From an uncultured Clostridia bacterium (GTDB taxonomy: Bacteria; Bacillota; Clostridia; TANB77; CAG-508), in NCBI GenBank assembly GCA_934133175.1, contig CAKPAX010000001.1:28387-92386 (forward strand): 64,000 nt of DNA, in the 5' to 3' direction. Shown here piece after piece: positions 2,907 to 57,366 of the stretch. The notes beneath the pieces are model-generated. The model was not told where the DNA came from, did not search any database, and saw only the letters and a list, made by a program, of their open reading frames with translations. Position 1 is the stretch's first letter. Each line of letters starts with the position of its first letter. Position numbers and translations under genes: made by a program.

Positions 2907-4127
2907 ATGCAAGAAATTCATTTATTTATATTATGGGAAAATGCATTGGACCAAAAACAAGAAATTTTAAAAGATATGCAAGAAAGTTTTGATATTCTTG
3001 GTATGTATAATATAACATGGAGTAAAGAAAAATTTTCTGAAAACTTATCAAGATTTTATGGAACAAATTTACCCAAAGGTTGCGGAAAAGAAGAACATTG
3101 TGGAAATGGAACATTTTTACTTGTTGTAGTTAGATGTAATAATTCTAAATATGAAGATAGAGATACATCAAAAGGAATTCAAAGAGTAAATACATCTATG
3201 TTTGATAAAAAAACATATTATAGAGAATTAACAGGTGGAGGACATAGAGTACATGCAACAAATTCAGAAATAGAAACAAACCATGATTTAACATTATTAC
3301 TTGGTAAATCAATAAAAGATTTTGTTAAAGAAAATAATTCTTGGGATGGTAATGAAATAAATTTACAAAAAGATTTATTTGGGGCTAATGGATGGAGTGA
3401 TGCAAAAGAAATGTTTTATGCATTAAACAATTGCATAAATTATGCATTACTTAGAAATTATGAAACATTACCAGAAGAAATATATGTAAATGAACACAAT
3501 GATATAGATATAATATGTGATTCGTTTGAAAATGCAGCATATGTATTAAATGCAAAAAAAGTTTTTAATGAAGAATATAGAGTTCATTATAAAGCAATGG
3601 TTGGACAAGGTTTTGCAAACTTTGATTTAAGATACATTGGAGATGACTATTATTTTAAACAATTAGAAGAAGATTTATTAAAAACAAAAATATATAATGA
3701 AAAAGGTTTTTATACAATATCTAATGATTATTATTTTTACACATTGTTATATCATGCGTTATTGCATAAGCCAAGTTTTTCAGAAGATTATAAAAATAGA
3801 TTATCAAAAATGAATAAAGAGTTTGGAAATTTGGAAAATGAACGACAATATTTAGAAATGTTGCAAAAATGGTTAATACAAAATGAATACATTGTAACAA
3901 AACCAATAGATAAATCAGTTCAGTTTAATAAGGAAAATGCAAAAAGATTATCACCATTAGTATATAAAGACAATTCTAGTATGGAAGAAGCAATAATACA
4001 AAATGAAGAATTAAAAAATGAGAACAAAAGATTAAGAGAAGAATTAGTAAGTGTTTATAATTCTAAAAGTTGGAGAATAACAGAAGTTTTAAGAAAGATA
4101 TCAAAAAAGATAAAAAATGGGGATTGA
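2907..4127 (+). CDS. hypothetical protein with C-terminal coiled coil; possible glycan chain-terminating/capping enzyme
   Basis: SD site AGGAG 8 nt upstream. The central NEHNDIDIICD weakly resembles a nucleotidyltransferase-fold DxD. The C-terminal heptad-like segment ends NSKSWRITEVLRKI, a motif shared with the next gene. Confidence 0.6.
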   Translation: MQEIHLFILWENALDQKQEILKDMQESFDILGMYNITWSKEKFSENLSRFYGTNLPKGCGKEEHCGNGTFLLVVVRCNNSKYEDRDTSKGIQRVNTSMFDKKTYYRELTGGGHRVHATNSEIETNHDLTLLLGKSIKDFVKENNSWDGNEINLQKDLFGANGWSDAKEMFYALNNCINYALLRNYETLPEEIYVNEHNDIDIICDSFENAAYVLNAKKVFNEEYRVHYKAMVGQGFANFDLRYIGDDYYFKQLEEDLLKTKIYNEKGFYTISNDYYFYTLLYHALLHKPSFSEDYKNRLSKMNKEFGNLENERQYLEMLQKWLIQNEYIVTKPIDKSVQFNKENAKRLSPLVYKDNSSMEEAIIQNEELKNENKRLREELVSVYNSKSWRITEVLRKISKKIKNGD

Positions 4128-4132
4128 TTTGT

Positions 4133-5971
4133 ATGAAATTAAATTTAGATTTTTATAAAAATGAAATAAAATATAATGAATTATCTAGAGAAGAATTTTT
4201 AATAAATAATTACATAGGAAATTATAAAGAAGATGAATATGGAAAAATTATAGAAAGAGATAATAGTATAGAAAGTTTATATACATTATCAGATATGAGA
4301 AAAAATATAATCAATTGGTATCCATTTGAAAAAGATTGTACAATCTTAGAAATTGGTGCAAATTTAGGGCAAATAACAGGAGAACTTTGCAAAAATGCAT
4401 CAAAAGTAGTTTCGGTTGAATTTTCTAAGTTAAGGGGACAAGCAATTGCTAAAAGACATAGTGACAAAAAGAATTTAGAGGTTATAGTTGGAAATCTAAA
4501 AGATATTAAGTTTGAAGAAAAGTTTGATTATATAACTTTAATTGGAATTTTAGAATATGCGCCAATTATATATCAAACAGAAAATCCATATGAAGATTTA
4601 TTAAAATTCTTGAGTACATTACTTAAAGATAATGGAAAGATGTTAATTGCAACAAATAATAAATTTGGTATGAGAAATTGGGCTGTTATAGATTCAAATG
4701 ATAGAAACTTAGAGTATGATGCTATAATTTCTAAAATGGATAGTAAAAAGAGTCAGTATCTTTCTAAAAAGATGATTGATAAATTAATACAAAAAGTAAA
4801 TTTAGGACAAGCAAAATATTATTATCCACTTCCAGATTATGAATATGCAAATGTAATTTTTACAGATAAGTTTTTACCAAATAAAAATAATATTCATAGA
4901 AATATGACATTTTTTAAAGACAGTTATATAGTAAATTTTCATGAGAATAATGCCTATTTACAAATAATTGAAGAAGATGAAAATTTATTTAAATTTTTTG
5001 CAAATTCATATTTTATAGAAGTTGGTAAAAACTTTAAAGAAAACAATATAAAATATGTATCTTTCTGGAACAATAGAAAGCCTGAATATAAATTAAAAAC
5101 CATAATGGAAGAAGATAAAGTTTATAAATATCCAGAAAATGAACTTGCAAAATCTCATATCGAGAAAATAAAAAACAATATAGATGTTTTAAATAAAGCA
5201 AACATTAAAGTTTTAGATCAATATGATGAAGAAAAAATTATAAGCAATATTATAACAGAAGCTAAGCCATATGATGAATATGTTTTAGAAGAGGGGAATA
5301 AAAACGGGATAGATGGAATTATTAAAGCAATTAATAATTTTAAAGGAAAAATATTAGATAAATTAGAAATAACCAATAATGTTAATAATGTATTTGATAA
5401 TTATGGTATTTTTTATAAAAAAGAAGAAATAAAAGATTTAACTTTTGTAAAAAATGGTCTATGGGATTTAAACTTTCAAAATTGTTTTATAAAAGACAAT
5501 GAATTATTCATATATGATCAAGAATGGGAAGATGATAAAATACCATTAGAATTTATTATATATAGAGGAATAGAAATTTTTACACAATTAAGAAATATTA
5601 TAAATACAAATGAATTATATGAAAAATTAGGTTTACAAAAATATAAATCATTATTTGACAGATTAGAAGAAAAAATAGATGGTAAAATATATGATAATTC
5701 AATACGTCTCGCAAATCATAGACCCATGAAAAATGTAAGAGGATTTATTGTTGAAAATAGTGATTTAAAAACCAAAAATATATTTTTAAGTAGTGAACTT
5801 CAGAAATTAGAAAAAGTAAATAATATAACAGAAGAAGAAATTAGTAAAATGAGAAAACAAATCGAAAATCAACAAAATACAATAAATGAAATTGAAAATT
5901 CAAAGGGATGGAAGTTAACATTAAAAATAAGAAAAGTGGTTTCTTGTTTTAAAAGAAAAGAGGAAAAATAA
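4133..5971 (+). CDS. class I SAM-dependent methyltransferase with long C-terminal coiled-coil extension (WbdD-like architecture)
   Basis: Contains ILEIGANLGQITGELC...VVSVEFS (SAM-binding motif I region). The C-terminus is a coiled coil ending NSKGWKLTLKIRKV. I prefer the ATG at 4133, just after the upstream stop, to the track start at 4070, which overlaps the previous gene. Confidence 0.7.
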   Translation: MKLNLDFYKNEIKYNELSREEFLINNYIGNYKEDEYGKIIERDNSIESLYTLSDMRKNIINWYPFEKDCTILEIGANLGQITGELCKNASKVVSVEFSKLRGQAIAKRHSDKKNLEVIVGNLKDIKFEEKFDYITLIGILEYAPIIYQTENPYEDLLKFLSTLLKDNGKMLIATNNKFGMRNWAVIDSNDRNLEYDAIISKMDSKKSQYLSKKMIDKLIQKVNLGQAKYYYPLPDYEYANVIFTDKFLPNKNNIHRNMTFFKDSYIVNFHENNAYLQIIEEDENLFKFFANSYFIEVGKNFKENNIKYVSFWNNRKPEYKLKTIMEEDKVYKYPENELAKSHIEKIKNNIDVLNKANIKVLDQYDEEKIISNIITEAKPYDEYVLEEGNKNGIDGIIKAINNFKGKILDKLEITNNVNNVFDNYGIFYKKEEIKDLTFVKNGLWDLNFQNCFIKDNELFIYDQEWEDDKIPLEFIIYRGIEIFTQLRNIINTNELYEKLGLQKYKSLFDRLEEKIDGKIYDNSIRLANHRPMKNVRGFIVENSDLKTKNIFLSSELQKLEKVNNITEEEISKMRKQIENQQNTINEIENSKGWKLTLKIRKVVSCFKRKEEK

Positions 5972-8862: not shown

Positions 8863-10464
8863 ATGAAAATTAATAAAATAATTAAATTTATTTTAATAAT
8901 GCTAGTAAGTTTTTGCATAATTCAATTTTTACCAAATAATAGAGTTGAGGCTGCCTCAAAACCTAATCTAAAAGTGACCTATAGTTACGATTCTAAAAAA
9001 GATGTAGTAACTGTAAAAGTAAAATCAAATATAAAATTGAAAAAAAATAAACCAAGTTGGACTTTAAGTAAGAATAAAAAAACGTATTCAAAAAAATTCT
9101 ATGTAAACGAAACATATTCAACTAAATTTACAGCTCAAAATGGAAAAAGCAAAACAATAAAAATAAAAGTGAAAAAAATAAAAGGACCTAAAGTTACAGT
9201 TAGTTATAAATATGATAAAAATACAAATAAAGTAAAAGTTACAGTGAAGTCTAATAAAGAAATGAAAAAAAATAGTGTTAATAATAAGTGGATTTTAAGT
9301 AAAAACAAGAAAACTTTTACAAGAGATTTTTCTGTAAATACCAAATTTAATATAACAATAAAAGATAAGTATGGGAACAAAACTAAAAAAGGAATTAATG
9401 TTAAGGGAATAGATAAAAAGGGTCCACAAATGACTATAAAATATTTATATAATTCTACAAATAATACAGTTACAGTTATTGCAGTAGCTAATGAAGAATT
9501 AAAAAATACAAAGCCTAGTTGGACTTTAAGTACAGATAAAAAAGTGTATACAAAAATATATGCAAAAAATGAAAAACAATATACAACAGAATTTCAAGAT
9601 AAATATGGAAATAAAACACAAACTAATATACAAATAACACAAATAGATGATATAGCTCCACAAGTGTCTATTTCAACAAAATATAATTCAGATAAAAGAT
9701 CTGCTGTTGTAAAGATATCATCTAATGAAGAATTGTATAATACAGATCCAACATGGAATATAAGTGGCGATAGAAAAACTTGTGAAATAACATATAAAAA
9801 AAATAATACATATAATCTTGTATTGCAAGATAAATGGGGAAACAAGACAAATAAAACTGTAAAAATATCAGGATTAATTGCAGTAGGAATAGATGTATCA
9901 CAACATAATAATAGAATAAATTGGGTAGAAGTAAAAAATGATGGGATTGATTTTGCTATGCTACGTTTAGGTTGGATTGGAAATAAAGAAAATCATACTT
10001 TAGATACATTTTTTAAAGAAAACTATGATTCTTGTAAAAAATTAAATATACATATTGGAATTTATGTTTATTCTTATGTGGAAAATGAAGAAGCAGCTAA
10101 AAATGCTGCTAAATGGACTGTAGAACAATTAAAAGATAAAAAAATAACATATCCTATTTATATAGACATTGAAGATGATCAAATTGAAAAATTAGATGTT
10201 CAAACTTTGACAAATATAACTAAAACATATTTGGAAGAACTAAAAACAGCAGGTTATAGTAAAGTGGGAATATATGCGAATAAAAACTGGCTTATAAATA
10301 AACTAGATATGTCTCAATTAGAGAAGTATGAAATATGGTTAGCACATTATACATCACAAACAGATTATTCAGGAAAGTATGATATGTGGCAATATACAAG
10401 TTCTGGTGATGTAAATGGAATACAAGGTAGAGTTGATATGGATTATAGTTATAAAACATATTAG
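8863..10464 (+). CDS. secreted GH25 muramidase (lysozyme) with four N-terminal ~78-aa repeats
   Basis: Signal peptide MKINKIIKFILIMLVSFCII...VEA. C-terminal GIDVSQHNNRINW...DFAMLRLGW...WLAHY...WQYTS is a GH25 catalytic-domain pattern. Confidence 0.8.
   Translation: MKINKIIKFILIMLVSFCIIQFLPNNRVEAASKPNLKVTYSYDSKKDVVTVKVKSNIKLKKNKPSWTLSKNKKTYSKKFYVNETYSTKFTAQNGKSKTIKIKVKKIKGPKVTVSYKYDKNTNKVKVTVKSNKEMKKNSVNNKWILSKNKKTFTRDFSVNTKFNITIKDKYGNKTKKGINVKGIDKKGPQMTIKYLYNSTNNTVTVIAVANEELKNTKPSWTLSTDKKVYTKIYAKNEKQYTTEFQDKYGNKTQTNIQITQIDDIAPQVSISTKYNSDKRSAVVKISSNEELYNTDPTWNISGDRKTCEITYKKNNTYNLVLQDKWGNKTNKTVKISGLIAVGIDVSQHNNRINWVEVKNDGIDFAMLRLGWIGNKENHTLDTFFKENYDSCKKLNIHIGIYVYSYVENEEAAKNAAKWTVEQLKDKKITYPIYIDIEDDQIEKLDVQTLTNITKTYLEELKTAGYSKVGIYANKNWLINKLDMSQLEKYEIWLAHYTSQTDYSGKYDMWQYTSSGDVNGIQGRVDMDYSYKTY
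8956..9870 (+). repeat. 4 tandem ~78-aa protein repeats (unassigned Ig-like/cell-wall-binding candidate)
   Basis: Recurrent pattern V-[ST]-Y.YD....V.V.V.SN..[LM]....P[ST]W.LS..KK.[YF]...[FY]......F.D.[YW]GN seen four times. Confidence 0.7.
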
Positions 10465-10510: not shown

Positions 10511-10572
10511 GTGGAAATAATATCCTTTGACTGGCTTGAAATTGTCATGTTACAATAATATTGGGTGATATT

Positions 10573-12192
10573 ATGTTAAATAAAAGAAAGTATATTATTT
10601 TAATATTTTTAACATTTATATTTCTATTGCAAATAATATTTCCTAATAAAGTAAAAGCAAATGATAATATTACATTAACATATATATATAATAATGTAGA
10701 AAATAGTGTAACAGTAAAAGCTACATCTGAAATAGGTTTTAAAAATACAAAACCAACGTGGGAACTAGGAAAAAATAAAAAGGTATATATAAAGAAATAT
10801 AATAAAAATGAAAGATATGATACAACGTTTTTATTAATAAATGGGACAAGAAAATTAGTTAATATTAATGTTAACCAAATTGATGATAAAGGACCTCAAA
10901 TTATTACCAAATACATTTATGATAATCTTACAGATACAGTAACTGTAAATATGATTTCAAATGAAATAATGGCAGATACGAAGCCAACATGGAAATTAAG
11001 TGATGATAAACTTGTATATACTAAAAGATACAATAAAAATCAAAATTATATAACAGAAGTAAAAGATGTGTATGGAAATATAAGTAAAGTAAATATAGAT
11101 GTTACTCAAATAAATGGACCAAATATAGAAATGGAATATGTATATAATAAACAAAATAATACAGTAACTGCAAAAATGAAATCAAATAAAATATTAGCTA
11201 ATACAAAACCAACGTGGAAATTAAGTGATGATAGATTGATATATACAAAAACATTTAATAAAAACGAAATGTATTATACACCTGTGCAAGATACTTTTGG
11301 AAATAGTAAAATGGCAAAAATAGAAATAACTCAAATAGATGATAAAGGACCTGAAATAGAAGTTATATATACATATAATGAAAAAAGTGGAATTGTTACT
11401 GTTGATATGAAATCAAATGAAATAATAGCAGATACAAAGCCAACGTGGAAATTAAGTGATGATAAATTAACATATACAAAAAGTTTTAATGAAAATCAAA
11501 ATTATATAACAGAAGTAAAAGATATATATGGAAATATTACAAAGGTGAAAATCTCTATAACACAAATAACAAAGAAAGTTTTTAATGGAATTGATGTATC
11601 TGTATATCAAGGAACAATAGATTGGACAAAAGTTAGTGAATCTGGAATTGATTTTGCTATGATAAGAGCCGGATATAGAGGATATGGTGATAAAGGAAGT
11701 TTAGTAGAGGATACAATGTTTGCCAAAAATGCATTAGGAGCGAAAATAAATAAAATAGATATAGGAGTGTATTTTTATTCTCAAGCAATAAATATAGAAG
11801 AGGCAAAAGAAGAAGCAAAATTTGTAGTAAGTTTAATTAAAAAATATGGAATAGATGTAAAATATCCTATAGCAATAGATACAGAATTATCTCCAATGGG
11901 GACAGGAAGAGCAGACAATATTTCAAAAGAAAAGAGAACAGAAGTAGTAAAGGCTTTTTGTGAAACTATTAAACAATTAGGTTATAAACCAATGATTTAT
12001 GCTAATAAATATTGGCTATATGATAATTTAAATGTACAACAAATAAGTCAATATGACATTTGGCTTGCACATTATATAGAAAGTACAGATTACAAGTATC
12101 AATATATGATGTGGCAATACACGAATACAGGAAAAGTTGATGGTATAACTGGAAATGTAGATAAAAATTATTGTTATAAAAAATATAATTAG
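10573..12192 (+). CDS. secreted GH25 muramidase paralog with four copies of the same repeat
   Basis: Signal peptide; repeat core TKPTWKLSDDKL.YTK..N.NQNYITEVKD.YGN; C-terminal GIDVSVYQGTIDW...DFAMIRAGY...WLAHY...WQYT (GH25). The ATG at 10573 is preferred over the TTG at 10561. Confidence 0.8.
   Translation: MLNKRKYIILIFLTFIFLLQIIFPNKVKANDNITLTYIYNNVENSVTVKATSEIGFKNTKPTWELGKNKKVYIKKYNKNERYDTTFLLINGTRKLVNINVNQIDDKGPQIITKYIYDNLTDTVTVNMISNEIMADTKPTWKLSDDKLVYTKRYNKNQNYITEVKDVYGNISKVNIDVTQINGPNIEMEYVYNKQNNTVTAKMKSNKILANTKPTWKLSDDRLIYTKTFNKNEMYYTPVQDTFGNSKMAKIEITQIDDKGPEIEVIYTYNEKSGIVTVDMKSNEIIADTKPTWKLSDDKLTYTKSFNENQNYITEVKDIYGNITKVKISITQITKKVFNGIDVSVYQGTIDWTKVSESGIDFAMIRAGYRGYGDKGSLVEDTMFAKNALGAKINKIDIGVYFYSQAINIEEAKEEAKFVVSLIKKYGIDVKYPIAIDTELSPMGTGRADNISKEKRTEVVKAFCETIKQLGYKPMIYANKYWLYDNLNVQQISQYDIWLAHYIESTDYKYQYMMWQYTNTGKVDGITGNVDKNYCYKKYN
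10660..11575 (+). repeat. 4 tandem ~76-aa protein repeats, same family as 8956-9870
   Basis: Near-identical nucleotide blocks (acaaagccaacgtggaaattaagtgatgataaa) recur at about 10975, 11210 and 11440. Confidence 0.75.
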
Positions 12193-14313: not shown

Positions 14314-15243
14314 ATGAAAAAAATTGCTGTATTAATACCATGTTATAACGAAGAGCTTACAGTAGAAAAAGTTATAAAAGATTTTAAAAGAGAGCTCCCA
14401 GAAGCGGATATATATGTTTATGATAATAATTCGAAAGATAAAACAGCAGAAATTGCAAAAAATGCAGGAGCAATTGTAAAACATGAATATAGACAAGGAA
14501 AAGGAAATGTTGTAAGAACAATGTTTATGGACATTGATGCTGACATATATGTTATGGTAGATGGGGATGACACTTATCCAGCAGAAGAAGTTCATAAGCT
14601 TATAAAACCAATTGAAGAAGAAAGAGCGGATATGGTTATAGGTGATAGACTAACAAATGGAACATATCAAAAAGAGAATAAAAGACATTTTCATGAATTT
14701 GGTAATAATTTAGTTAGAAAATCTATAAATGTATTATTTAATACAAAATTAAAAGATATAATGACAGGATATAGAGTATTTAATAAAAAATTTGTAAAAA
14801 ATATGCCTGTATTAAGCCCAAAATTTGAAATAGAAACAGAAATGTCTTTGCACGCATTAGATAAAAAATTTATAATAGAAGAAATTCCAATTGTATATAG
14901 AGATAGACCAGAAGGAAGTACATCTAAGTTAAATACAATAGGTGATGGAATAAAAGTTGTAAAAACAATAGTAAAAATGTTTAAAGATTATAAACCACTA
15001 AAATTTTTTGGAGTAATTGCAGGAATATTATTTATAATAGGACTAGCCTTTGGAATTCCAGTTATAGTAGAATTCTTTAAAACTAGATATATAACAAAAG
15101 TTCCAACAGCAGTTTTAGCTACAGGAATAATGATTTTATCAGTAATAATAGGACAATGTGGAGTTATATTAGACACAGTTGTTAAACATCATAGAGAATC
15201 TTATGAATTAAATTTATTAAGATATAAACAATTAGAAAAATAA
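14314..15243 (+). CDS. polyprenyl-phosphate glycosyltransferase (GT2, GtrB/CsbB-like)
   Basis: IAVLIPCYNEE, YDNNSKDKT and VDGDDTY motifs with C-terminal TM helices. Confidence 0.85.
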   Translation: MKKIAVLIPCYNEELTVEKVIKDFKRELPEADIYVYDNNSKDKTAEIAKNAGAIVKHEYRQGKGNVVRTMFMDIDADIYVMVDGDDTYPAEEVHKLIKPIEEERADMVIGDRLTNGTYQKENKRHFHEFGNNLVRKSINVLFNTKLKDIMTGYRVFNKKFVKNMPVLSPKFEIETEMSLHALDKKFIIEEIPIVYRDRPEGSTSKLNTIGDGIKVVKTIVKMFKDYKPLKFFGVIAGILFIIGLAFGIPVIVEFFKTRYITKVPTAVLATGIMILSVIIGQCGVILDTVVKHHRESYELNLLRYKQLEK

Positions 15244-15265
15244 AAAACATTGAAAGGAAAACAAA

Positions 15266-15697
15266 ATGAAAAAAATAATTGAATTAATAAAAGCACTATG
15301 TATAAAATATAAAGAATTAATAATGTATGGGATAATGGGAGTGCTATCAACAATTGTAAATATCGCATCATTTACTATATTTGAGAAAGTATTTGGAATT
15401 CCAGCATTAATTAGTAATGTAATAGCTTGGATTATAACTGTAATCTTTGCATATATAACAAACAAATTATATGTATTTGAAAGTAAAAGCTTTAAAAGAG
15501 ATGTATTAATAAAGGAAATTTTATCATTCACATCTGCAAGAATATTCTCATTATTATTAGAAGAAGCAATACTATATGTATTAATTGATTTAATGAATGT
15601 AAACTCAATAATAACAAAAATATTCTCAAACATAGTAGTTATAATAGTAAATTATATTTTGAGTAAATTAGTTATATTTAAAAAAGACAAAAAATAA
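15266..15697 (+). CDS. GtrA family membrane protein (lipid-linked sugar translocation-associated)
   Basis: 143 aa with 4 TM helices. The YGIMGVLSTIVNI...NKLYVFES pattern is typical of the GtrA family. Confidence 0.8.
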   Translation: MKKIIELIKALCIKYKELIMYGIMGVLSTIVNIASFTIFEKVFGIPALISNVIAWIITVIFAYITNKLYVFESKSFKRDVLIKEILSFTSARIFSLLLEEAILYVLIDLMNVNSIITKIFSNIVVIIVNYILSKLVIFKKDKK

Positions 15698-15712
15698 AAG
15701 GAGGAAAAATAG

Positions 15713-17405
15713 ATGAAACAAAAGAATAAAATTTTTGAAAGTGGAATTACATTAATAGCATTAGTTATAACAATAATAGTTTTGCTAATACTTGCAGGTG
15801 TTACAATAAATATGTTGACTGGTGAAAATGGTATATTAAAACAAGCAACAAATGCAAAAGATGTATCAGAAAAATCAGAATTTGAAGAACAAGTAAGATT
15901 ATCAGTAATAGCTTCAAAAATGAATAATTCAGCAAGAATTAATTTGGATGAACTAGATACAGAATTAAAAAAAATAAGTGGAGTTACAGAGAAAAATATA
16001 AATAAACAAGGTGAAAACGGCAAATTACCATGGATAGTAACTAAAGGAAAAAATTCTGTAACAATACAACCAGAAGAAAACACAGATGAAAAAAATTCAA
16101 GTGAAGATAAAGGTGATGTAGAAGAGGGATGGGTGAATGAGCCTAAATTAATTACTGGAATGACACCAATTTATTGGGATGAGAATAACACTGAAATAAT
16201 AGTGACAGAAAGTAATAAAGATAAATGGTATAATTATAAACAAAAAAGATGGGCCAATGCTAAAACAGAAGATGGGAGTTATTGGGTATGGATACCAAGA
16301 TATGAATATTCTATAGATTCAAATACTAAAAAAATAAATATAAAATTTATAAAAACCACTCAAACAACAGTGGATGATAATTATACATATATTCATCCGG
16401 CATTTAGAAATGGAACTTTAACAAATTTTCAAAATGGTGAATGGGATGAAGAAATACCCGGATTTTGGGTAGCAAAATATTCAGCAGGTTTTCAGAGTTG
16501 TTCAACAGATATAAATGGAAATAATATAAATGAAACAGATACAATTAAGTATTCAACTTCTAAATATACAGGTTTTAGTAATTCTTGTAAAACAAATGCA
16601 TTAGGGCAAAATCTGACAGAAGAAGGAAATGAAAAAATATCATATCCGGTATTTAAACCTTTAACTTATTCTTATAATAATATAAGTGTAGGAGATTGTT
16701 ATACAATATCACAAGAAATTGACAGTGCAGTATCATTTTATGGTTTAAGTGGATATAATAATTCAAGTCATTTGATGAAAAATAGCGAATGGGGAGCGGT
16801 AGTATATTTAACACAGAGTAGTTATGGAAGAAATGGTACGGAAGTAACAATAAATAGTAGAAATTTAAGTGATTTAGATTCTAAATTAATATATACAGTA
16901 ACTGGATATGCTGGAAATACAGCTTTGGGAACAGATGCAAGTAGTACGAGTGATATGAGTCGGAGTATTTGATTTAAATGGTGGAGTATGGGAAAGAATG
17001 GCAAGTTATGTATCAAATGGAAATCAAAATTTAGGCACATATGGATCATCATTTGTGAATACAATACCAAACCCAGAAGCTTATAAAACTTTAAGTAATA
17101 AATATATTACAGTTTATCCATATAATTCTTCTAGTGATACAATACTTGAAAATTGGAGAACTTATAGTAATTTGAAGTATGGATATGGTGATTCAATATT
17201 AGAAGTATCAAAAATTATAGAAGAAAAAACTGAAAATTGGAATGGAAAAATAATAAATTATGCATACTCAGAGTGGCCATTTTTTGCTTATGGTGGAATA
17301 GAAGATGATGACAATTCAAGTGCAGATATGTTTGGATTGGCATGTACTTATGGAGGTCCACATATTACTCGTGGATTTCGCGTATGTTTAACATTTGAAG
17401 AATAA
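15713..17405 (+). CDS. prepilin-like N-terminus + FGE/SUMF1-like domain protein, split by a +1 frame change at the CGG codon 16961-16963
   Basis: N-terminus MKQKNKIFESG/ITLIALVITIIVLLILAG. The track shows two pieces (15713-16972 and 16998-17405). The +1 frame is open from 16959. Joining gives DMS-G-VFDLNGGVWE and a C-terminal RGFRVCL, both FGE-sulfatase-like signatures. Confidence 0.75.
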
Positions 17406-17408
17406 AAA

Positions 17409-17439
17409 ATAGTACCTATTTAAAAGGTACTATTTTTTT
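17409..17439. terminator. bidirectional rho-independent terminator
   Basis: Perfect 9-bp stem atagtacct / aggtactat flanked by an A-run (5') and a T-run (3'). It lies between convergent genes. Confidence 0.8.
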
Positions 17440-17445
17440 GTTTGA

Positions 17446-17562
17446 TTAGCAACATCCTTTATTGCCACCACAACAACAGCATATTAATAATATAAGAATT
17501 ATTATCCAGCAGCAGTCATCACCAAATCCAAAACCGCATCCGCATCCTCTGTTTTCAGGCAT
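17446..17562 (-). CDS. small Cys/Gly-rich hydrophobic peptide, 38 aa (not in the ORF track)
   Basis: My translation is MPENRGCGCGFGFGDDCCWIIILILLICCCCGGNKGCC. SD AAAGGGGG sits 7 nt upstream of the ATG. Architecture resembles tiny-TM YjcZ-type sporulation peptides. Confidence 0.55.
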   Translation of the reverse strand: MPENRGCGCGFGFGDDCCWIIILILLICCCCGGNKGCC

Positions 17563-17601
17563 AAGAAAACCCCCTTTCCTAAAAAGTATTATTCTTTTCA
17601 A

Positions 17602-17715
17602 TTAACAGCAAGAGTTATTGTTATTGCAACAACAACCTCTGTTGCCACAGCCACCACAGAAAAGAAGTAAGAAAAGAATAATGAACCAAAGAATTTCATC
17701 ATTACAGCAACACAT
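17602..17715 (-). CDS. small Cys-rich hydrophobic peptide, 37 aa (not in the ORF track)
   Basis: My translation is MCCCNDEILWFIILFLLLFCGGCGNRGCCCNNNNSCC. A perfect SD AAGGAGG sits 9 nt upstream of the ATG. It is in tandem with 17446-17562. Confidence 0.55.
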   Translation of the reverse strand: MCCCNDEILWFIILFLLLFCGGCGNRGCCCNNNNSCC

Positions 17716-17900
17716 AAGTAAGTACCTCCTTGAAAAAATATTTAAGTTTAATCTTTTGTTTGTGTTCCTTTGTATGATATATAATATGAATTCTTAAAAA
17801 TTTTGTTACAAATTTTAAATAATGTTGATAAATAAAAAATTGTATGTTAGAATTTCTTTATAAAAAGTATATTAAATAAAATTTTATTAGGGAGAAATAG

Positions 17901-18449
17901 ATGTTAAAAAGAGAAAGTAGTGAAATTTTACATGATATTAAAGTAGAAATTCCTGAATTTGAAAAAGATGAGTTGTTAGAATATACAAAATGGGCTATTC
18001 CATCATTATATGAGTCATTAAGAGATAATGAAAAAATAGTTTTGAATTGTAATAATGAAGTGATAAATAAAATTAATTCTGAAAAAGAAAGTTACAGAGT
18101 AACGAAAAATATAGATAAAGTAACTGTTCAATATGCCGATTTATTTGATTATCTTAATATAAATAGTGAAAAGTATATAAAAGTTTATATTTCTTTATAT
18201 TTTTATGATGATGTAAATAATAATATTGATAAAGATTGTGAAAAAGATAAATATTGGAATGATACATGGATTATTACATATAAGATAAATGGTGGAAAAA
18301 CAAAAGACAATTGCAATTGTAGTAATTGTGGTTCAGTCATGAAATATAATCTTCAAAATAATATATTTGAATGTGAATATTGTGGAAATGTAATTCATAT
18401 AAATTCAAATTTAAAATGGGAAATTGTTGACATTCAAGTAATAATGTAA
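17901..18449 (+). CDS. hypothetical protein with C-terminal zinc-ribbon (CxxC...CxxC)
   Basis: SD GGGAG upstream; CSNCGS...CEYCGN near the C-terminus. Confidence 0.6.
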   Translation: MLKRESSEILHDIKVEIPEFEKDELLEYTKWAIPSLYESLRDNEKIVLNCNNEVINKINSEKESYRVTKNIDKVTVQYADLFDYLNINSEKYIKVYISLYFYDDVNNNIDKDCEKDKYWNDTWIITYKINGGKTKDNCNCSNCGSVMKYNLQNNIFECEYCGNVIHINSNLKWEIVDIQVIM

Positions 18450-18501
18450 CAAAGATGATATATGTTGAAAAATTGTACAAATGCAAAATTGGAGGAAAAA
18501 A

Positions 18502-20736
18502 ATGGGAAATATAGTTTTATTAGATGATTTAACAATAAATAAAATAGCAGCAGGAGAAGTTATAGAAAGACCTGCTTCTGTAATAAAAGAGATGATAGAA
18601 AACTCAATTGATGCAGGAGCGAAGAATATAACAGTAGAAATTAAAAATGGTGGAATATCATATATAAGAGTAACTGATGATGGAAAAGGAATTGCAAGTG
18701 ATGATCTGGAAATTGCATTTGAAAGGCATGCAACAAGTAAAATTAGATGTGCGGATGATTTAGAAAATGTAAAATCTATGGGATTTAGAGGTGAAGCTTT
18801 AGCTAGTATTGCAGCTATAGCTAATGTTGAATTGGTATCAAAAACAAATAGCCAAGAGACAGGATATAAAATAACCGTAGAAGGTGGAAAAGTATTAAAC
18901 AAAGAAGAAATTGGATGTCCTACAGGAACTACAATTACGGTGAAAAATTTATTTTTTAATACGCCAGTAAGATATAAATTCTTAAAAAAAGATTATACAG
19001 AATCAGGATATATAGAAGATGCAATTACAAGAATTGCTTTAGTTAATCCTAATATATCATTTAAATTAATAAATACTGGAAAGACAGTAATTCAAACAAA
19101 TGGTAACGGAGATTTAAAAACAGTTGTATATAGTATATATGGAAAAGACGTTGCAGATGGAATATTAAATGTTAACTATAATTATGAAGATATTAATATT
19201 GTGGGAGTAGTAGGAAAACCAGAAATAGCGAGATCTAATAGATCAAATCAATTATTTTTTGTAAATAAAAGATATATAAAAGATAAAACTCTATCTTCAG
19301 CAACAGAACAAGCTTTTAAAGGTATGCTTCCGATTGGAAAATTTGGTTTTGTAGTTTTAGATTTAGAAATGGATCCAAGTAAAGTAGATGTTAATGTACA
19401 CCCAGCAAAATTAGAAGTAAGATTTGAAGATGAAAATAAAGTATTTAAAGCAATATATCACGCTATAAAAGATACATTACTAAAATCTGAATTGGTAGCA
19501 AATACAACTAAAGAAAGTGTAGTTGAAGATGTTACAAAGAGAATAGAAACAATTAATGATGAAAAAAAATTAGAAGAGAAAATTCAATTAAAAGAAAATA
19601 AAGATGAACCAAGCTTATTTAAAAGAATAGAAGAAATAAATAAAAAGAATGAAGAAAAAAGTGCATTAGTTAATATTCCAAAAGTAGATATACCAGAATC
19701 TACAGAAAATATATTAAATCAATTAAAACAATTACAAGAAAAATTAAAAAAAGAGACTGAAGAAAATAAGAAAAAAGAAAAAATTGAAATTGAAGAACAT
19801 GAAAGACTAGAAGAAAAGGAAGAAAAAATAAAAGAAACAGAAGAAGAAAAAGAGAATGTAATTGTTGATGAAATAAAAGAAAAAAATGAAAATGGTGAGA
19901 CAGAAAGAAAAGAAGAGACACCAAGTGAAATTGCTAAAAATGAAGAATTTAAAAAACTAAAAGAACAAATAGATATGCTAAGAAAAGCGGAAGAACAGGA
20001 AACAGAAAATTTTGATCAAATGTATGAAAAAACTTTTGGAAATAAACCAATAGGAATTATTCAAGAAGAAAAAGAAGCGGAAAAACAAATTGATGCCGAA
20101 GACATTTTTGAAAACACTGAAAATGTTTCTGTATTTGAAGATATTGAGGAATATAATAAACCAACATATAAATTTATAGGAATAGCATTTAAAACATATA
20201 TTATTCTTGAGATGAATAAGGAGATGTATATATTAGATCAACATGCTGCTCATGAGAGAATTATGTATGAACAAATAAAGAAAAATTATTATAATAATTC
20301 TACAAAAGACTCACAGATGTTACTTTTACCAGATGTGATAACATTAACACATAAAGAGATGGATATTGCAAAGGAAAATATGGACATGTTTAGAAGGGCT
20401 GGATTTACTTTAGAAGAATTTGGAGAAAATACAATAAAATTATCAGGAGTTCCAAATATATGTGTTGATTTGAATACTAAAGAATTATTTTTAGAAACTC
20501 TTGATGAAATAAATACTGTTGCAAGAACTGCAAAACAAGAAAAAGAAGAAAAATTTATAGCAACAGTTGCATGTAAAGCAGCAGTTAAAGCTAATATGGC
20601 GTTAACAAAAGAAGAAGTGGATAGTTTAATGGATCAATTATTAAAATTACCTAATCCATTCACATGTCCGCATGGAAGACCAACAGCAATAAAAATGACG
20701 AAATATGATATCGAAAGAAAATTTGCAAGAAAATAG
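18502..20736 (+). CDS. mutL: DNA mismatch repair protein MutL
   Basis: IAAGEVIERPASV.KE..ENS.DAGA, GFRGEAL, and C-terminal dimerisation/endonuclease region with QHAAHERI and CPHGRP. SD GGAGG lies 6 nt before the ATG at 18502. Confidence 0.95.
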   Translation: MGNIVLLDDLTINKIAAGEVIERPASVIKEMIENSIDAGAKNITVEIKNGGISYIRVTDDGKGIASDDLEIAFERHATSKIRCADDLENVKSMGFRGEALASIAAIANVELVSKTNSQETGYKITVEGGKVLNKEEIGCPTGTTITVKNLFFNTPVRYKFLKKDYTESGYIEDAITRIALVNPNISFKLINTGKTVIQTNGNGDLKTVVYSIYGKDVADGILNVNYNYEDINIVGVVGKPEIARSNRSNQLFFVNKRYIKDKTLSSATEQAFKGMLPIGKFGFVVLDLEMDPSKVDVNVHPAKLEVRFEDENKVFKAIYHAIKDTLLKSELVANTTKESVVEDVTKRIETINDEKKLEEKIQLKENKDEPSLFKRIEEINKKNEEKSALVNIPKVDIPESTENILNQLKQLQEKLKKETEENKKKEKIEIEEHERLEEKEEKIKETEEEKENVIVDEIKEKNENGETERKEETPSEIAKNEEFKKLKEQIDMLRKAEEQETENFDQMYEKTFGNKPIGIIQEEKEAEKQIDAEDIFENTENVSVFEDIEEYNKPTYKFIGIAFKTYIILEMNKEMYILDQHAAHERIMYEQIKKNYYNNSTKDSQMLLLPDVITLTHKEMDIAKENMDMFRRAGFTLEEFGENTIKLSGVPNICVDLNTKELFLETLDEINTVARTAKQEKEEKFIATVACKAAVKANMALTKEEVDSLMDQLLKLPNPFTCPHGRPTAIKMTKYDIERKFARK

Positions 20737-34765: not shown

Positions 34766-36247
34766 ATGAAACAAAATAACAGAAGACTAGATAAAGGTAT
34801 AACATTAATAGCATTAGTAATAACAATAATAGTATTATTAATATTAGCAGGAGTAGCAATAAGCATGTTAACAGGAGAAAATGGAATATTAAAACAGGCA
34901 ACAAGTGCAAAAAATACAACAGATAAGTCAGAATTTGAAGAGCAAGTAAAATTAGCAGTAATGGCATCAAAGGTAAATGATAAAGGAGCAATAGATTTAA
35001 CCACATTAGAAGCAGAAATAGGAAAAATAAAAGGAACAGAAATAACAAAAAATGGAACAGATAATAGTTTACCTTGGACAGTAAAGAAAGGAAGTTATGA
35101 GGTAACAATAACATCAGAAGGAACAATAACATCAAACACAACAGGAAAAGATGAACAAGTTGTTGAATCAGAGGTTATGAAACAAGCTAAAGGAGCAATG
35201 CCAGAAGGAGCATCCATAGACTCAACAACAAATGAGAATACAGGAATAGTAATGATTGATAGTAAGCAAAACGAGTGGGTATGGATAGAAGTGCCAGCAA
35301 CAGTATTTGCAACTGCAACAAATAATACAGATTACGAGAATATAAAAGCAGATTTAATAGAATATGTAAAAGATTATAGAGAAGAAGGATATTCAGATGA
35401 ATGGTATGCAAAAGTTAATAATAGTAAATTTATAACAGCAAATACAGAGGGAATAACAGATGAACAAAAGTTGTTAAGTAATGGATGTGGGTTAACTTAT
35501 GATCAATATAATGAAAAATATAACAAAATGTTAAGTAGTATATATACCAATAAAGGGTTTTATATAGGAAGATATGAAACAGGAGATGGTACTGCAACCA
35601 AAAACAATATAAGTAGAAGTAATGCAAATAGAGCTGGAACAGTAGATGAAATTGCTAATGTAGATAATGAAGGGGTTATCAAAGAAAATCAAATGCCATA
35701 TAATTATGTTTATTGTAAAGAGGCAGAAATAGTTGCTGAAAGGTTTGCAACAACTGGAAAAACAAGTAGTTTAATGTTTGGAATACAATGGGATTTGGTA
35801 TGTAAGTTTTTAGAAGTGAAAGGCAATTGGGATACAAGTACAAATACAGCACAATATTATATAAAATCAAATAGTACAGATTGGGGAAATTATAAAAATA
35901 GTACTATTACATTAAATCAAGGAAAATATTTTACATCTGCAAGTAATTCATGGGCTGCAATAAATGTTGATGAAAAAAATTATGTAAAGAATTCGTCAAA
36001 AATACAAAACTCATCTATATTATTAACAACAGGATCTAGTGAAAATACTAAAAAAATGAATATATATGATTTAGCTGGAAATGTTGTAGAAAGAACACTA
36101 GAAAAAGCAGATAAAGAAAGAAATGTTTGTAGTGAGAGAGGAGGACATTTATACGTAAATGGATCAGAAAATTCAGTTTCCTGTCGTTATGATGATTATA
36201 CTGATACAAGTGATTTACTTTTTGGATTTCGTGTGGCACTTTATTAA
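34766..36247 (+). CDS. prepilin-like N-terminus + FGE/SUMF1-like domain protein (intact paralog)
   Basis: MKQNNRRLDKG/ITLIALVITIIVLLILAGVAISMLTGENGILKQA; C-terminal YDLAGNVVE, ERGGH and FGFRVALY. Confidence 0.8.
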   Translation: MKQNNRRLDKGITLIALVITIIVLLILAGVAISMLTGENGILKQATSAKNTTDKSEFEEQVKLAVMASKVNDKGAIDLTTLEAEIGKIKGTEITKNGTDNSLPWTVKKGSYEVTITSEGTITSNTTGKDEQVVESEVMKQAKGAMPEGASIDSTTNENTGIVMIDSKQNEWVWIEVPATVFATATNNTDYENIKADLIEYVKDYREEGYSDEWYAKVNNSKFITANTEGITDEQKLLSNGCGLTYDQYNEKYNKMLSSIYTNKGFYIGRYETGDGTATKNNISRSNANRAGTVDEIANVDNEGVIKENQMPYNYVYCKEAEIVAERFATTGKTSSLMFGIQWDLVCKFLEVKGNWDTSTNTAQYYIKSNSTDWGNYKNSTITLNQGKYFTSASNSWAAINVDEKNYVKNSSKIQNSSILLTTGSSENTKKMNIYDLAGNVVERTLEKADKERNVCSERGGHLYVNGSENSVSCRYDDYTDTSDLLFGFRVALY

Positions 36248-55140: not shown

Positions 55141-57366
55141 TTGAAAAATAAGGGAATAACACTAATAGCATTAGTAATTACAATAATAGTATTATTAATA
55201 TTAGCTGGAGTATCAATTGCAATGTTAACAGGAGATAATGGTTTATTAACAAATGCACAGAAATCTTCATTTGCAACAGAAATGAAAGCTGTAAAAGAAC
55301 AAGTAGACTTGAAAAAAACACAAATGCAATTAGAAAATATAGGTTCAAGTACAAGTGGACAAATATTTGAAAACAATGTAAATATTACAGATAAAATGCC
55401 TAATACATTAAAACAAGAAATAATGTATTTTAGAGATGGACAAGACAAAGAAAAGAAACCATCAGATTATAATGTAGAAAACTTTGAAAAATATATAATA
55501 AAATCTGAAGATGGAAAAATAGAAAGAATGTATGTAATAGATAAAAAAACAGCAAATGGAAAAGAAAATACATATATATATGATGAAAAAACAGATATAG
55601 TATATAAAATAAAACAAACTAAAATTGGAGGAAAAACATATCATAGTTATGAGGCTATGTCATTAGGAAATGGAGGAACAGCAGAAGATGAAGACAGTAC
55701 AGATACCTCTAAAGGAGATAAAACAGCAAAAGCAAGTAATTATGAAAAAAATGGAGATGTATATTTAAATACACCAGATTTACAAAACTTAGATCCAGAA
55801 ACAACATATTATATAACATATGATGAAAGTGGAAGTAATCCATATATAGCAGGAAGAATAGATAGAATAGATCCACCAGGAAACTGGTATAATTATGGAG
55901 AAAAGAAGTGGGCAAATGTAGTAACAGTGTCCAATAATCAAGTTGTATGGTGGGTATGGATACCAAGATATAAATATGTAGCAAATGCATCAGAACAAAT
56001 GGTGGATGTAAAATTTGTGAGCATAGAAAATGAATATAAAAATGGTTCAGGACAAGTAGAAGAATTATCAAGTGAATATAAAATGCCAGAAAGTTTTAAA
56101 TTTGGGGACGAAGAAAATGGATATAAAGAGTTAGCGGGATATTGGATGGCAAAATATGAAACACAAGAAGAAGTATCGGAATTAATAGCAACAGAACCAA
56201 GTATAAATTCAATAAAAGTCTATACAAGTAAAACAACAGCAGATACATATAATATATTTATAAATGGAGAAAGAAAATATGAAAATGTAACATTACCATA
56301 TAATATAACTGGTTTAAAAGCAAATACAAAATATGATATATGTGTGGCAAATGGAGAAAACATAGTAGCTAGAAAACAAGTAACAACAAAGGATATAGAA
56401 GTTTCATTAGAAGGATTAGATCAAAGCCATACTTACTATGTAACATATGATGAAAATGGAAATAATCCTCAAATAGCTGGAAGAATGGATAAAGTACAAA
56501 GACCAGAAAATTGGTATAATTACGGAGAAAAGAAATGGGCTAATATAATAACTGTTAATGGAAGTTCAGTAGCATATTGGGTATGGATACCAAGATATGA
56601 ATATATAACAATAAATGCGATGAATCAAACAGATATAACATATATACCAGTAACTCAAACAGATCCAGACCCTGGATATAAAATACCAGATAGCTTTAAA
56701 TTTGGAGATGAAGAAAGTGGATATAAACAGCTAGCAGGATATTGGATAAGTAAATATGAAGTAACAGAAGATCCAGAAACAATAGGATTAAATCCACAAA
56801 TAGGAGGAATAACGGTAACAGCAAGCAAAGCAGCAAGTGATAGGAATTATGATGTATATGTGGATGGAGAACTAAAATATAGTGGTGTGTTACCACATAC
56901 AATTGATGGACTAGAGCAAAACAAAAAATACGAAATATATGTATTAAAAGATGGAATGATGTTGGGTGCAGATGATGTGACAACGAAAGCTATAGAAATA
57001 GATATGACTGGATTAAATAAAGAACATACATATTATGTAGTATATAATACAGATGGAACAAGTCAATTAACATCAATAACAGAAGCGGAACCGGAAAATT
57101 GGTATAATTATAGTGAGAAAAGATGGGCAAATATAGTAACCAAAAATGAAGATGGAAGTCAAGAAGCATGGTGGGTATATATACCAAGATATGAATATAA
57201 AACAGAGACCGGAGGACAAATAGTAGATATAAAATTTATACCAAAAGAACAAACAGATGCTGATCCTGGATATGTAATACCAGATAGCTTTAAATTTGGT
57301 GATGAAGAAAATGGATATAGACAATTAGCCGGATATTGGATAAGTAAGTATGAAGTAAGTGAATAA
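55141..57366 (+). CDS. prepilin-like N-terminus protein with three tandem ~200-aa modules (N-terminal half of FGE-like domain + beta-rich spacer)
   Basis: TTG start 6 nt after SD AAAGGAGG. N-terminus MKNKG/ITLIALVITIIVLLILAGVSIAMLTGDNGLL. Three repeats of NWYNY.EK.WAN...W.WIPRY.Y...PDSFKFGDEE.GY..LAGYW.SKYE. Confidence 0.8.
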   Translation: MKNKGITLIALVITIIVLLILAGVSIAMLTGDNGLLTNAQKSSFATEMKAVKEQVDLKKTQMQLENIGSSTSGQIFENNVNITDKMPNTLKQEIMYFRDGQDKEKKPSDYNVENFEKYIIKSEDGKIERMYVIDKKTANGKENTYIYDEKTDIVYKIKQTKIGGKTYHSYEAMSLGNGGTAEDEDSTDTSKGDKTAKASNYEKNGDVYLNTPDLQNLDPETTYYITYDESGSNPYIAGRIDRIDPPGNWYNYGEKKWANVVTVSNNQVVWWVWIPRYKYVANASEQMVDVKFVSIENEYKNGSGQVEELSSEYKMPESFKFGDEENGYKELAGYWMAKYETQEEVSELIATEPSINSIKVYTSKTTADTYNIFINGERKYENVTLPYNITGLKANTKYDICVANGENIVARKQVTTKDIEVSLEGLDQSHTYYVTYDENGNNPQIAGRMDKVQRPENWYNYGEKKWANIITVNGSSVAYWVWIPRYEYITINAMNQTDITYIPVTQTDPDPGYKIPDSFKFGDEESGYKQLAGYWISKYEVTEDPETIGLNPQIGGITVTASKAASDRNYDVYVDGELKYSGVLPHTIDGLEQNKKYEIYVLKDGMMLGADDVTTKAIEIDMTGLNKEHTYYVVYNTDGTSQLTSITEAEPENWYNYSEKRWANIVTKNEDGSQEAWWVYIPRYEYKTETGGQIVDIKFIPKEQTDADPGYVIPDSFKFGDEENGYRQLAGYWISKYEVSE
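55774..57363 (+). repeat. three tandem ~600-nt coding repeats (units start at about 55774, 56401 and 57001; the last is truncated)
   Basis: The same ordered motifs (TYY.TYDE.G, NWYNYGEKKWAN, WVWIPRYEY, DSFKFGDEENGY, AGYWISKYE) appear three times. Confidence 0.75.

Follow-up and report, generated by a model that had tools for sequence, protein, structure and literature searches.

A two-gene operon of cysteine-rich micropeptides with a predicted sigma-K promoter in an uncultured Clostridia bacterium

Organization and coding status of the peptide genes

The analyzed window is a 64,000-nucleotide stretch of contig CAKPAX010000001.1 (positions 28,387 to 92,386 of the forward strand; NCBI GenBank assembly GCA_934133175.1) from an uncultured Clostridia bacterium. 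On its minus strand, it carries two tandem genes, here designated pep1 and pep2, which encode cysteine-rich, hydrophobic peptides of fewer than 40 amino acids (aa). Both open reading frames (ORFs) were recovered where an earlier reading of the sequence alone (the original prediction) had located them, with the claimed Shine-Dalgarno sites in place. The features of the locus, in window coordinates, are listed below in the order of transcription of the pair.

17804..17809, minus strand: -35-like element GTAACA, which includes the 'AC' typical of sigma-K promoters
17780..17788, minus strand: -10-like element CATATTATA, of the mother-cell sigma-factor type (CATAnnnTA)
17725..17731, minus strand: Shine-Dalgarno site AAGGAGG of pep1, 9 nucleotides (nt) before its ATG
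17602..17715, minus strand: pep1 coding sequence, ATG start, TAA stop, 37 aa, 10 Cys: MCCCNDEILWFIILFLLLFCGGCGNRGCCCNNNNSCC
17570..17577, minus strand: Shine-Dalgarno site AAAGGGGG of pep2, 7 nt before its ATG
17446..17562, minus strand: pep2 coding sequence, 38 aa, 10 Cys: MPENRGCGCGFGFGDDCCWIIILILLICCCCGGNKGCC
17404..17438, both strands plausible: intrinsic terminator hairpin of 14 bp, common to pep2 and a convergent 135-aa ORF

The two genes form a free-standing operon with its own conserved bipartite promoter, ribosome-binding sites, and terminator. Only 39 nt separate pep1 from pep2, and no promoter-like element was found in this gap. The hairpin at 17404-17438 folds as minus-strand RNA with -15.5 kcal/mol (z = -7.8 against shuffled sequences); since a terminator scan called it on the plus strand as well, the shared bidirectional terminator proposed originally is plausible. 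A GGAGG equivalent to the pep1 Shine-Dalgarno site precedes the pep1 homologues in related loci, and hairpin-plus-T-run terminators lie 3' of pep2 there.

For comparison, 108 ATG-started ORFs of 30-60 aa were collected from the six frames of the 64-kb window (25.8% GC). The highest Cys count in any other small ORF was 7, compared with 10 each in pep1 and pep2, which bears out the extreme Cys load ascribed to the peptides and shows it to be more than chance; the count of 10 claimed for pep2 was correct, and that of 11 claimed for pep1 has to be lowered to 10. No other small ORF of the window pairs a hydrophobic core of 11 or more residues with a G/C/N/Y content above 30%. Cys accounts for 26-27% of the residues and occurs in CxC, CC, and CCCC motifs. 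The peptides are paralogs with 55% identity over the aligned part, and they have in common M1 and the pattern D-[DE]-x-x-W-x-I-I-L-x-L-L...C...G-N-[KR]-G-C-C. In both, the N-terminus is polar and Gly/Cys-rich with an acidic end (containing GCGCGFGFG in pep2); one short hydrophobic helix (W-IIILILLI, about 13-15 residues) comes next, and then a Gly/Asn tail lined with Cys (CCCCGGN.GCC). The AlphaFold2 model of pep2, computed with the family alignment, has one helix at residues 16-30 (DCCWIIILILLICCC) and disordered tails; its confidence is low (mean pLDDT 59.6; core 77).

No signal peptide was found in pep1 or pep2, and the peptides do not resemble bacterial lipoproteins. The LptM signal stayed below threshold (16.6 bits; cut-off 27.7), the first post-core Cys follows F in pep1 (LLLF-C) or I in pep2 (LLI-C), which does not fit the lipobox [LVI][ASTVI][GAS]C, and the N-termini are acidic or neutral in place of a positive n-region.

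A profile of both peptides retrieved 54 proteins from 5.8 billion clusters, and an exhaustive HMMER search of 1.84 billion representatives gave 101 clusters at 50% identity (E <= 1e-3). The query consisted of a 51-aa TTG-extended ORF aligned with pep1. The exact sequences of pep1 and pep2 were absent from a 15-billion-protein collection. Homologues of pep2 always start with MPENRG, and the Cys residues right after the helix (C29-C31) as well as the C-terminal Cys are invariant in them; the pep1 homologues share the core NDEILWFIILFLLLFCGCGN.

Codon alignments of 16 distinct pep2 genes and 7 distinct pep1 genes were taken from 36 loci (referred to below by L numbers). Variable columns at codon positions 1/2/3 numbered 20/11/38 for pep2 and 16/10/26 for pep1. 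The proportions of synonymous (pS) and non-synonymous (pN) differences were 0.71 and 0.135 for pep2 (pN/pS 0.19) and 0.67 and 0.154 for pep1 (pN/pS 0.23). By these codon statistics, the Cys-rich reading frames are under clear purifying selection, which marks pep1 and pep2 as genuine genes. Conservation in relatives, on which the original prediction had made the reality of the genes depend, was thus found: homologues occur in many Clostridia metagenome assemblies, with pN/pS of about 0.2 and third codon positions varying most. Off-frame ORFs on the same DNA, such as MMKFFGSLFFSYFFSV... at 17598-17702, were rejected because the substitution patterns match the Cys-rich frames.

The tandem order pep1-pep2 was found again in L002, L006, L011, L022, L029, L031, and L035, and some lineages have pep2 alone. 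Longer database entries of pep2 homologues are over-extended gene calls. The public proteins P0016, P0019, P0021, P0024, and P0033, in which an off-frame of pep1 is fused to pep2, are gene-calling artefacts, and the tandem arrangement is therefore conserved in these cases too. Such errors of the gene callers (also seen in P0036 and P0038) either run in the wrong frame across pep1 (FYGSSFYS...) into pep2 or lead from pep1 into the wrong frame of pep2, giving artefacts of 65-90 aa.

Promoter of the operon

When the sequences 5' of the first peptide gene were aligned, a conserved bipartite element emerged. Its form in the window is GTAACA (17809-17804)-N15-CATATTATA (17788-17780), and the sigma-E/K-type promoter that the original prediction had suggested looking for in this region was thereby located, with both boxes conserved across the family. 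The family form is GTAAC[AC]-N15-[C/A]ATAwTAT[A/G], in which GTAAC[AC] keeps a constant spacing in related loci. The pattern GTAACM-N15-MATAWTATA has a single match in the window, with 0.02 expected by chance. Of 29 loci with 26-59% GC, labelled Clostridium, Oscillospiraceae, Lachnospiraceae, Blautia, and Ruminococcus, 27 have the pattern AC-N15-17-[C/A]ATAnnnT[A/G] in the 95 nt that precede their first peptide gene. As controls, 2.35% of all 95-nt windows in the same loci and 6 of 257 upstream regions of other ORFs (2.3%) contained this pattern, one of the six being an off-frame ORF at a peptide locus. The binomial probability of this enrichment is about 1e-42, calculated over loci that are not independent. 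The inter-box spacer is unconserved; outside the search pattern, the G and T before AAC and the T-A within/after the -10 are conserved. L031 and L033 carry the element too.

The window promoter fits the published mother-cell sigma-K pattern (-35 AC, -10 CATAnnnTA). The Bacillus subtilis sigma-K motif comprises a 5-nt -35 and a 10-nt -10 element with a gap of 14-16 nt, and B. subtilis yjcZ belongs to the sigma-K regulon (PMC517825). The window -10 also matches the Clostridioides difficile mother-cell -10 boxes CATATTAT/CATATAAT, as given in PMC3789822. Because the promoter pattern matches published motifs and is conserved, we infer that the pep1-pep2 operon is transcribed late in the mother cell by sigma-K, with a leader of about 60 nt.

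The same DNA could instead serve sigma-A, in which case the peptides would be vegetative small membrane proteins unrelated to sporulation, acting as modulators of membrane complexes or as thiol/metal-buffering peptides of anaerobes. In a consensus scan, GTAACA-17-TATTAT reaches 9/12 as a sigma-70-type site, and many one-helix bacterial micropeptides modulate membrane proteins (review, PMC10730256). We nevertheless regard this explanation as unlikely. Conservation falls on bases that are not of the sigma-A type (G and A in GTAAC; the C/A-A-T-A opening the -10), the GC-rich loci L013, L017, L025, and L026 keep CATAnnnT[A/G] with AC 15-17 nt upstream and have no good TTGACA/TATAAT pair, and no conserved partner membrane protein is encoded nearby.

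Two further loci were inspected. In L012 (labelled Oscillospiraceae), two single-core family genes at 3997-4110 and 4430-4537, about 430 nt apart, each have their own GCACCA-N15-16-CATAAACTA promoter-like element and their own GGAGG site. The DNA upstream of a YjcZ gene of Bacillaceae (L037) contains only an imperfect AC-N16-AATATAAAA and was not used as evidence.

Genomic setting and distribution of the family

The peptide pair lies on the minus strand within an otherwise plus-strand region. It diverges from mutL (18481-20736) and a 182-aa zinc-ribbon-like ORF and converges with the 135-aa ORF. ORFs of at least 150 aa in the window are almost all on the plus strand, and the peptide operon is among the few minus-strand units. 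In relatives, one or both peptide genes are directly divergent from mutL (L002-L006, L008, L010, L011, L014, L028, L031, L033, and L041-L044), and the far-side neighbour in these mutL-linked loci is variable (groEL, spoIIE, an ECF-sigma gene, and others). In L029, the pair is placed elsewhere, near priA, def, and fmt. An all-against-all comparison of the neighbouring ORFs revealed no partner gene common across clades; there is clade-specific synteny only, e.g., mutL-miaA.

The 182-aa ORF (17901-18449, plus strand), situated between the peptide operon and mutL, has a weak C-terminal zinc-ribbon match (PF08271, E = 0.0034) that falls below the cut-off. A tblastn search gave no counterpart in loci L001-L028, in which mutL and the peptide gene are immediate neighbours, and the ORF looks like a lineage-specific insertion.

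This setting bears on the bacteriocin-like role that had been offered as one possibility, in which the peptides would be precursors of ribosomally synthesized and post-translationally modified peptides (RiPPs), that is, a Cys-rich sactipeptide, lanthipeptide, or radical-SAM-matured peptide. Small Cys-rich tandem paralogs are indeed found in many RiPP precursor arrays. However, more than 20 loci were examined, and in none of the clades did a maturase, leader protease, ABC exporter, or immunity gene lie within about 5 kb; the neighbours are housekeeping genes (mutL, miaA, groEL, priA), and no NCBIfam or Pfam precursor family matched at E <= 10. Conservation peaks in the hydrophobic core and the adjacent Cys, the opposite of a leader with a variable core peptide. 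A tblastn search of plasmid and phage collections gave no match, although the low-complexity filter may lower its sensitivity. The bacteriocin-like role is accordingly disfavoured, and because processing and export genes are absent, it is the weakest of the rival explanations, with hardly any probability left to it.

Membrane-permeabilising peptides were considered as well, either holin-like ones for sigma-K-timed mother-cell lysis and spore release or type I toxin-like ones as the toxins of toxin-antitoxin pairs. The very small size, the one strongly hydrophobic helix, and the lack of a signal peptide would suit such a role, and a late mother-cell promoter is compatible with a lysis function. 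It seems quite improbable, however, given that the heavy, conserved Cys/Gly/Asn tails are foreign to known type I toxins or holins and that the locus is stably chromosomal beside mutL, with no phage or plasmid copies. No antisense RNA or other structured RNA was found either by an Rfam scan of window positions 15000-20000 at permissive thresholds (E <= 1), a scan that included no dedicated antisense promoter analysis.

The family is carried by metagenome-assembled Clostridia; assemblies of the mutL-linked clade bear the label 'uncultured Clostridium/Clostridia' and have a GC content of 26-31%. In close relatives of the window organism that have the mutL-adjacent locus, Spo0A is encoded on the L002 contig and SpoIIE on the L033 contig. 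A wider superfamily was found in assemblies labelled Oscillospiraceae, Lachnospiraceae, Blautia, Ruminococcus, Eisenbergiella, Marvinbryantia, and Oscillibacter, with GC up to 59%. Its signature is N-C-C-W-I-I-I-L-I-L-L-F-C-C-C-G-N-N; some members have two such cores per peptide, and others are without most Cys yet keep W...CC.CG.

These members also inform the question of whether the peptides could be metallothionein-like stores of Zn, Cu, or Fe in or on the spore. The high Cys content, the CxC/CC/CCCC motifs, and the conserved Cys positions are what such a store would have. Metallothioneins, however, have no hydrophobic helix or aromatic residues, whereas the peptides are dominated by a 13-15-residue hydrophobic helix with Trp and Phe and gave no Pfam metallothionein match. 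Moreover, the less Cys-rich members keep the helix and CC.CG and lose most other Cys; the helix is therefore a better hallmark of the family than the thiol load, and metal storage is very unlikely as the function.

Public names of family members are missing or read 'hypothetical protein' or 'chorion class high-cysteine HCB protein 13'. The last of these is carried by the two-core proteins P0100 and P0118 (NCBI labels Christensenellaceae, Anaerotignaceae, and Eubacterium sp.). It is a silk-moth eggshell name, and the likeness lies in Cys/Gly-rich composition only. In the literature searched, a single paper has the name, for Bombyx mori and not in a bacterial context, and it is therefore read as a compositional mis-annotation.

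Other paralogs were noted elsewhere in the window. Three with a prepilin-type N-terminus, (K)GITLIALVITIIVLLILAGV...MLTGENGILKQAT, are encoded on the plus strand at 15713-16972, 34766-36247, and 55141-57366. The first of them (419 aa) has no Pfam match at E <= 0.01, and the 135-aa ORF (16998-17405) starts 25 nt after it; this ORF could be a gene in its own right, or else the split-off C-terminus of a longer paralog. At 8863-10464 and 10561-12192 (plus strand), a pair of neighbouring secreted paralogs, each about 540 aa long and alike in their N-terminal regions (...VTYSYDSKKDVVTVKVKS... and ...LTYIYNNVENSVTVKATS...), is encoded in a glycosyltransferase/ABC-transporter cluster.

Interpretation and comparison with known systems

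The original prediction had likened the pair to the YjcZ-type sporulation peptides, which are modelled by TIGR01732 ('tiny_TM_bacill', NCBIfam; curated cut-off 21.35 bits) and PF09680 (Pfam). The tiny, Gly-rich, single-helix architecture was confirmed; the match to the TIGR01732 model was not, and by the YjcZ family's own model pep1 and pep2 are not members. YjcZ-like sequences used as a positive control reach 38-50 bits on TIGR01732, and all named YjcZ proteins retrieved carry PF09680 and come from Bacillaceae. Pep1, pep2, and eight members of the wider family matched no Pfam or NCBIfam family at E <= 10. An alignment of 35 named YjcZ proteins was compared with the pep2 family using hhalign, which gave a probability of 67.5-69.6% and a score of 23.4 over 17-20 columns, pairing GFGFGDDCCWIIILILL with the YjcZ segment GCGYGGGFALIVVLFIL. 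The reversed profile scored 18, and 25 block-preserving column shuffles had a mean of 16 (sd 2.8, maximum 22.6), with 0 of 25 reaching 23.4. Architecture and register thus agree between the two families, and remote homology to YjcZ is plausible but unproven.

The most probable explanation, in our judgement, though one held with some reserve, is that the locus is a two-gene operon of paralogous late mother-cell (sigma-K) micropeptides, that these belong to a Clostridia-wide family, and that they are components of the spore envelope. Given a promoter that looks like the sigma-K type, pep1 and pep2 are probably small spore-envelope or membrane components, cross-linked or membrane-anchored.

Several points weigh against this explanation. 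No recognisable sporulation gene was found within the 64-kb window, and sporulation of the source organism is therefore deduced from relatives. The sigma-K assignment draws on a sequence pattern plus its conservation; the same DNA can be scored as the sigma-A site given above, and the canonical C that the window has as its first -10 base is replaced by A (GAATAATATA) in most of the low-GC loci from the Clostridium clade. The structural model of pep2 is of low confidence, and a hydrophobic stretch of 13-15 residues is short for a bilayer-spanning helix. Neither TIGR01732 nor PF09680 matches the peptides at E <= 10, and the profile-profile similarity to YjcZ is suggestive, being only modestly above the compositional controls. 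The cross-linking or anchoring role is speculative, an analogy and not evidence.

With a sigma-K promoter, the peptides would be made in the mother cell during coat and exosporium assembly, as reported for B. subtilis yjcZ. Speculatively, the helix could lodge the peptide in the outer forespore membrane or in hydrophobic material of the coat, with the approximately 10 thiols per peptide perhaps forming intermolecular disulfide or metal-thiolate links. The peptides could then serve the spore envelope as small cross-linkers or anchors, paralleling the larger Cys-rich proteins CsxA, CdeC/CdeM, and ExsY/CotY. A bolder version, which we consider doubtful, is that the sigma-K-timed, thiol-lined micropeptides couple the outer forespore/mother-cell membrane to the Cys-rich coat/exosporium lattice or form a redox-gated pore that triggers mother-cell lysis. 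If this is true, spore-envelope assembly in anaerobic gut spore formers would have a structural or timing component not seen before, and the peptides would be a functional counterpart of YjcZ of Bacilli.

Sporulation underlies the transmission and persistence of most gut Clostridia, and few envelope components are common to Bacilli and Clostridia. The present family has no curated model in Pfam or NCBIfam, no literature on it or on Cys-rich small sporulation peptides was found, and it is largely missed by annotation: its genes go uncalled, are read in a wrong frame, or bear the name of a moth eggshell protein, though conserved across clades labelled Clostridium, Lachnospiraceae, and Oscillospiraceae. 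Should the sigma-K prediction be true, a broadly conserved micropeptide would join the clostridial mother-cell programme, and the profile together with the promoter motif would provide a sequence-defined handle on YjcZ-type peptides. For annotation in general, peptides of extreme composition and fewer than 40 aa are a blind spot, being systematically overlooked or mis-called. The family, with its proposed function, is of interest for both spore biology and small-ORF annotation.

Among known systems, CsxA of C. sporogenes/botulinum, CdeC/CdeM of C. difficile, and ExsY/CotY of Bacillus are Cys-rich, made in the mother cell, and proposed to assemble the outermost spore layers with disulfide stabilisation (PMC7333573, PMC7677010). 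The peptides share their high Cys content, but these proteins are soluble and self-assembling with 150-400 aa, whereas in the peptides, of 4 kDa, a hydrophobic helix predominates; the two groups are unrelated in sequence, and the peptides are without a Pfam match. SpoVM and CmpA of B. subtilis, described in PMC10730256 as 26-37-aa mother-cell micropeptides at the outer forespore membrane and the coat basement layer, are similar in size. SpoVM has an amphipathic, Cys-free helix and depends on sigma-E; in the Cys-rich family, the helix is hydrophobic throughout and the promoter is of the sigma-K type, and no sequence similarity was seen.

The closest likeness is to YjcZ, whose own function is uncharacterised even in B. 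subtilis. Both families comprise peptides of 30-50 aa with a Gly-rich N-terminus (GxGxG), a single hydrophobic segment in the form of an invariant block of about 15 residues that ends at Gly, and a short C-tail in which Cys, Trp, or Tyr is frequent, encoded by free-standing, often duplicated genes with their own promoter and terminator. B. subtilis yjcZ is assigned to the sigma-K regulon, and the Cys-rich family carries a promoter that is sigma-K-like in sequence. The cores differ: C-C-W-I-I-I-L-I-L-L-I-C-C-C-C-G in the Cys-rich family versus F-A-L-(I/L)-V-V-L-F-I-L-L-I-I-(V/I)-G-A in YjcZ, with the core motifs D-D-C-C-W-IIILILLI-CCCC-G and G-G-F-A-L-IVVLFILLIIV-G-A, respectively. The Cys-rich peptides have 8-10 Cys each, compared with 0-3 in YjcZ, and the members found are all from Clostridia, whereas the named YjcZ proteins are from Bacillaceae. 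The family can best be viewed as a Cys-rich variant, from Clostridia, of the tiny YjcZ-type sporulation peptides.

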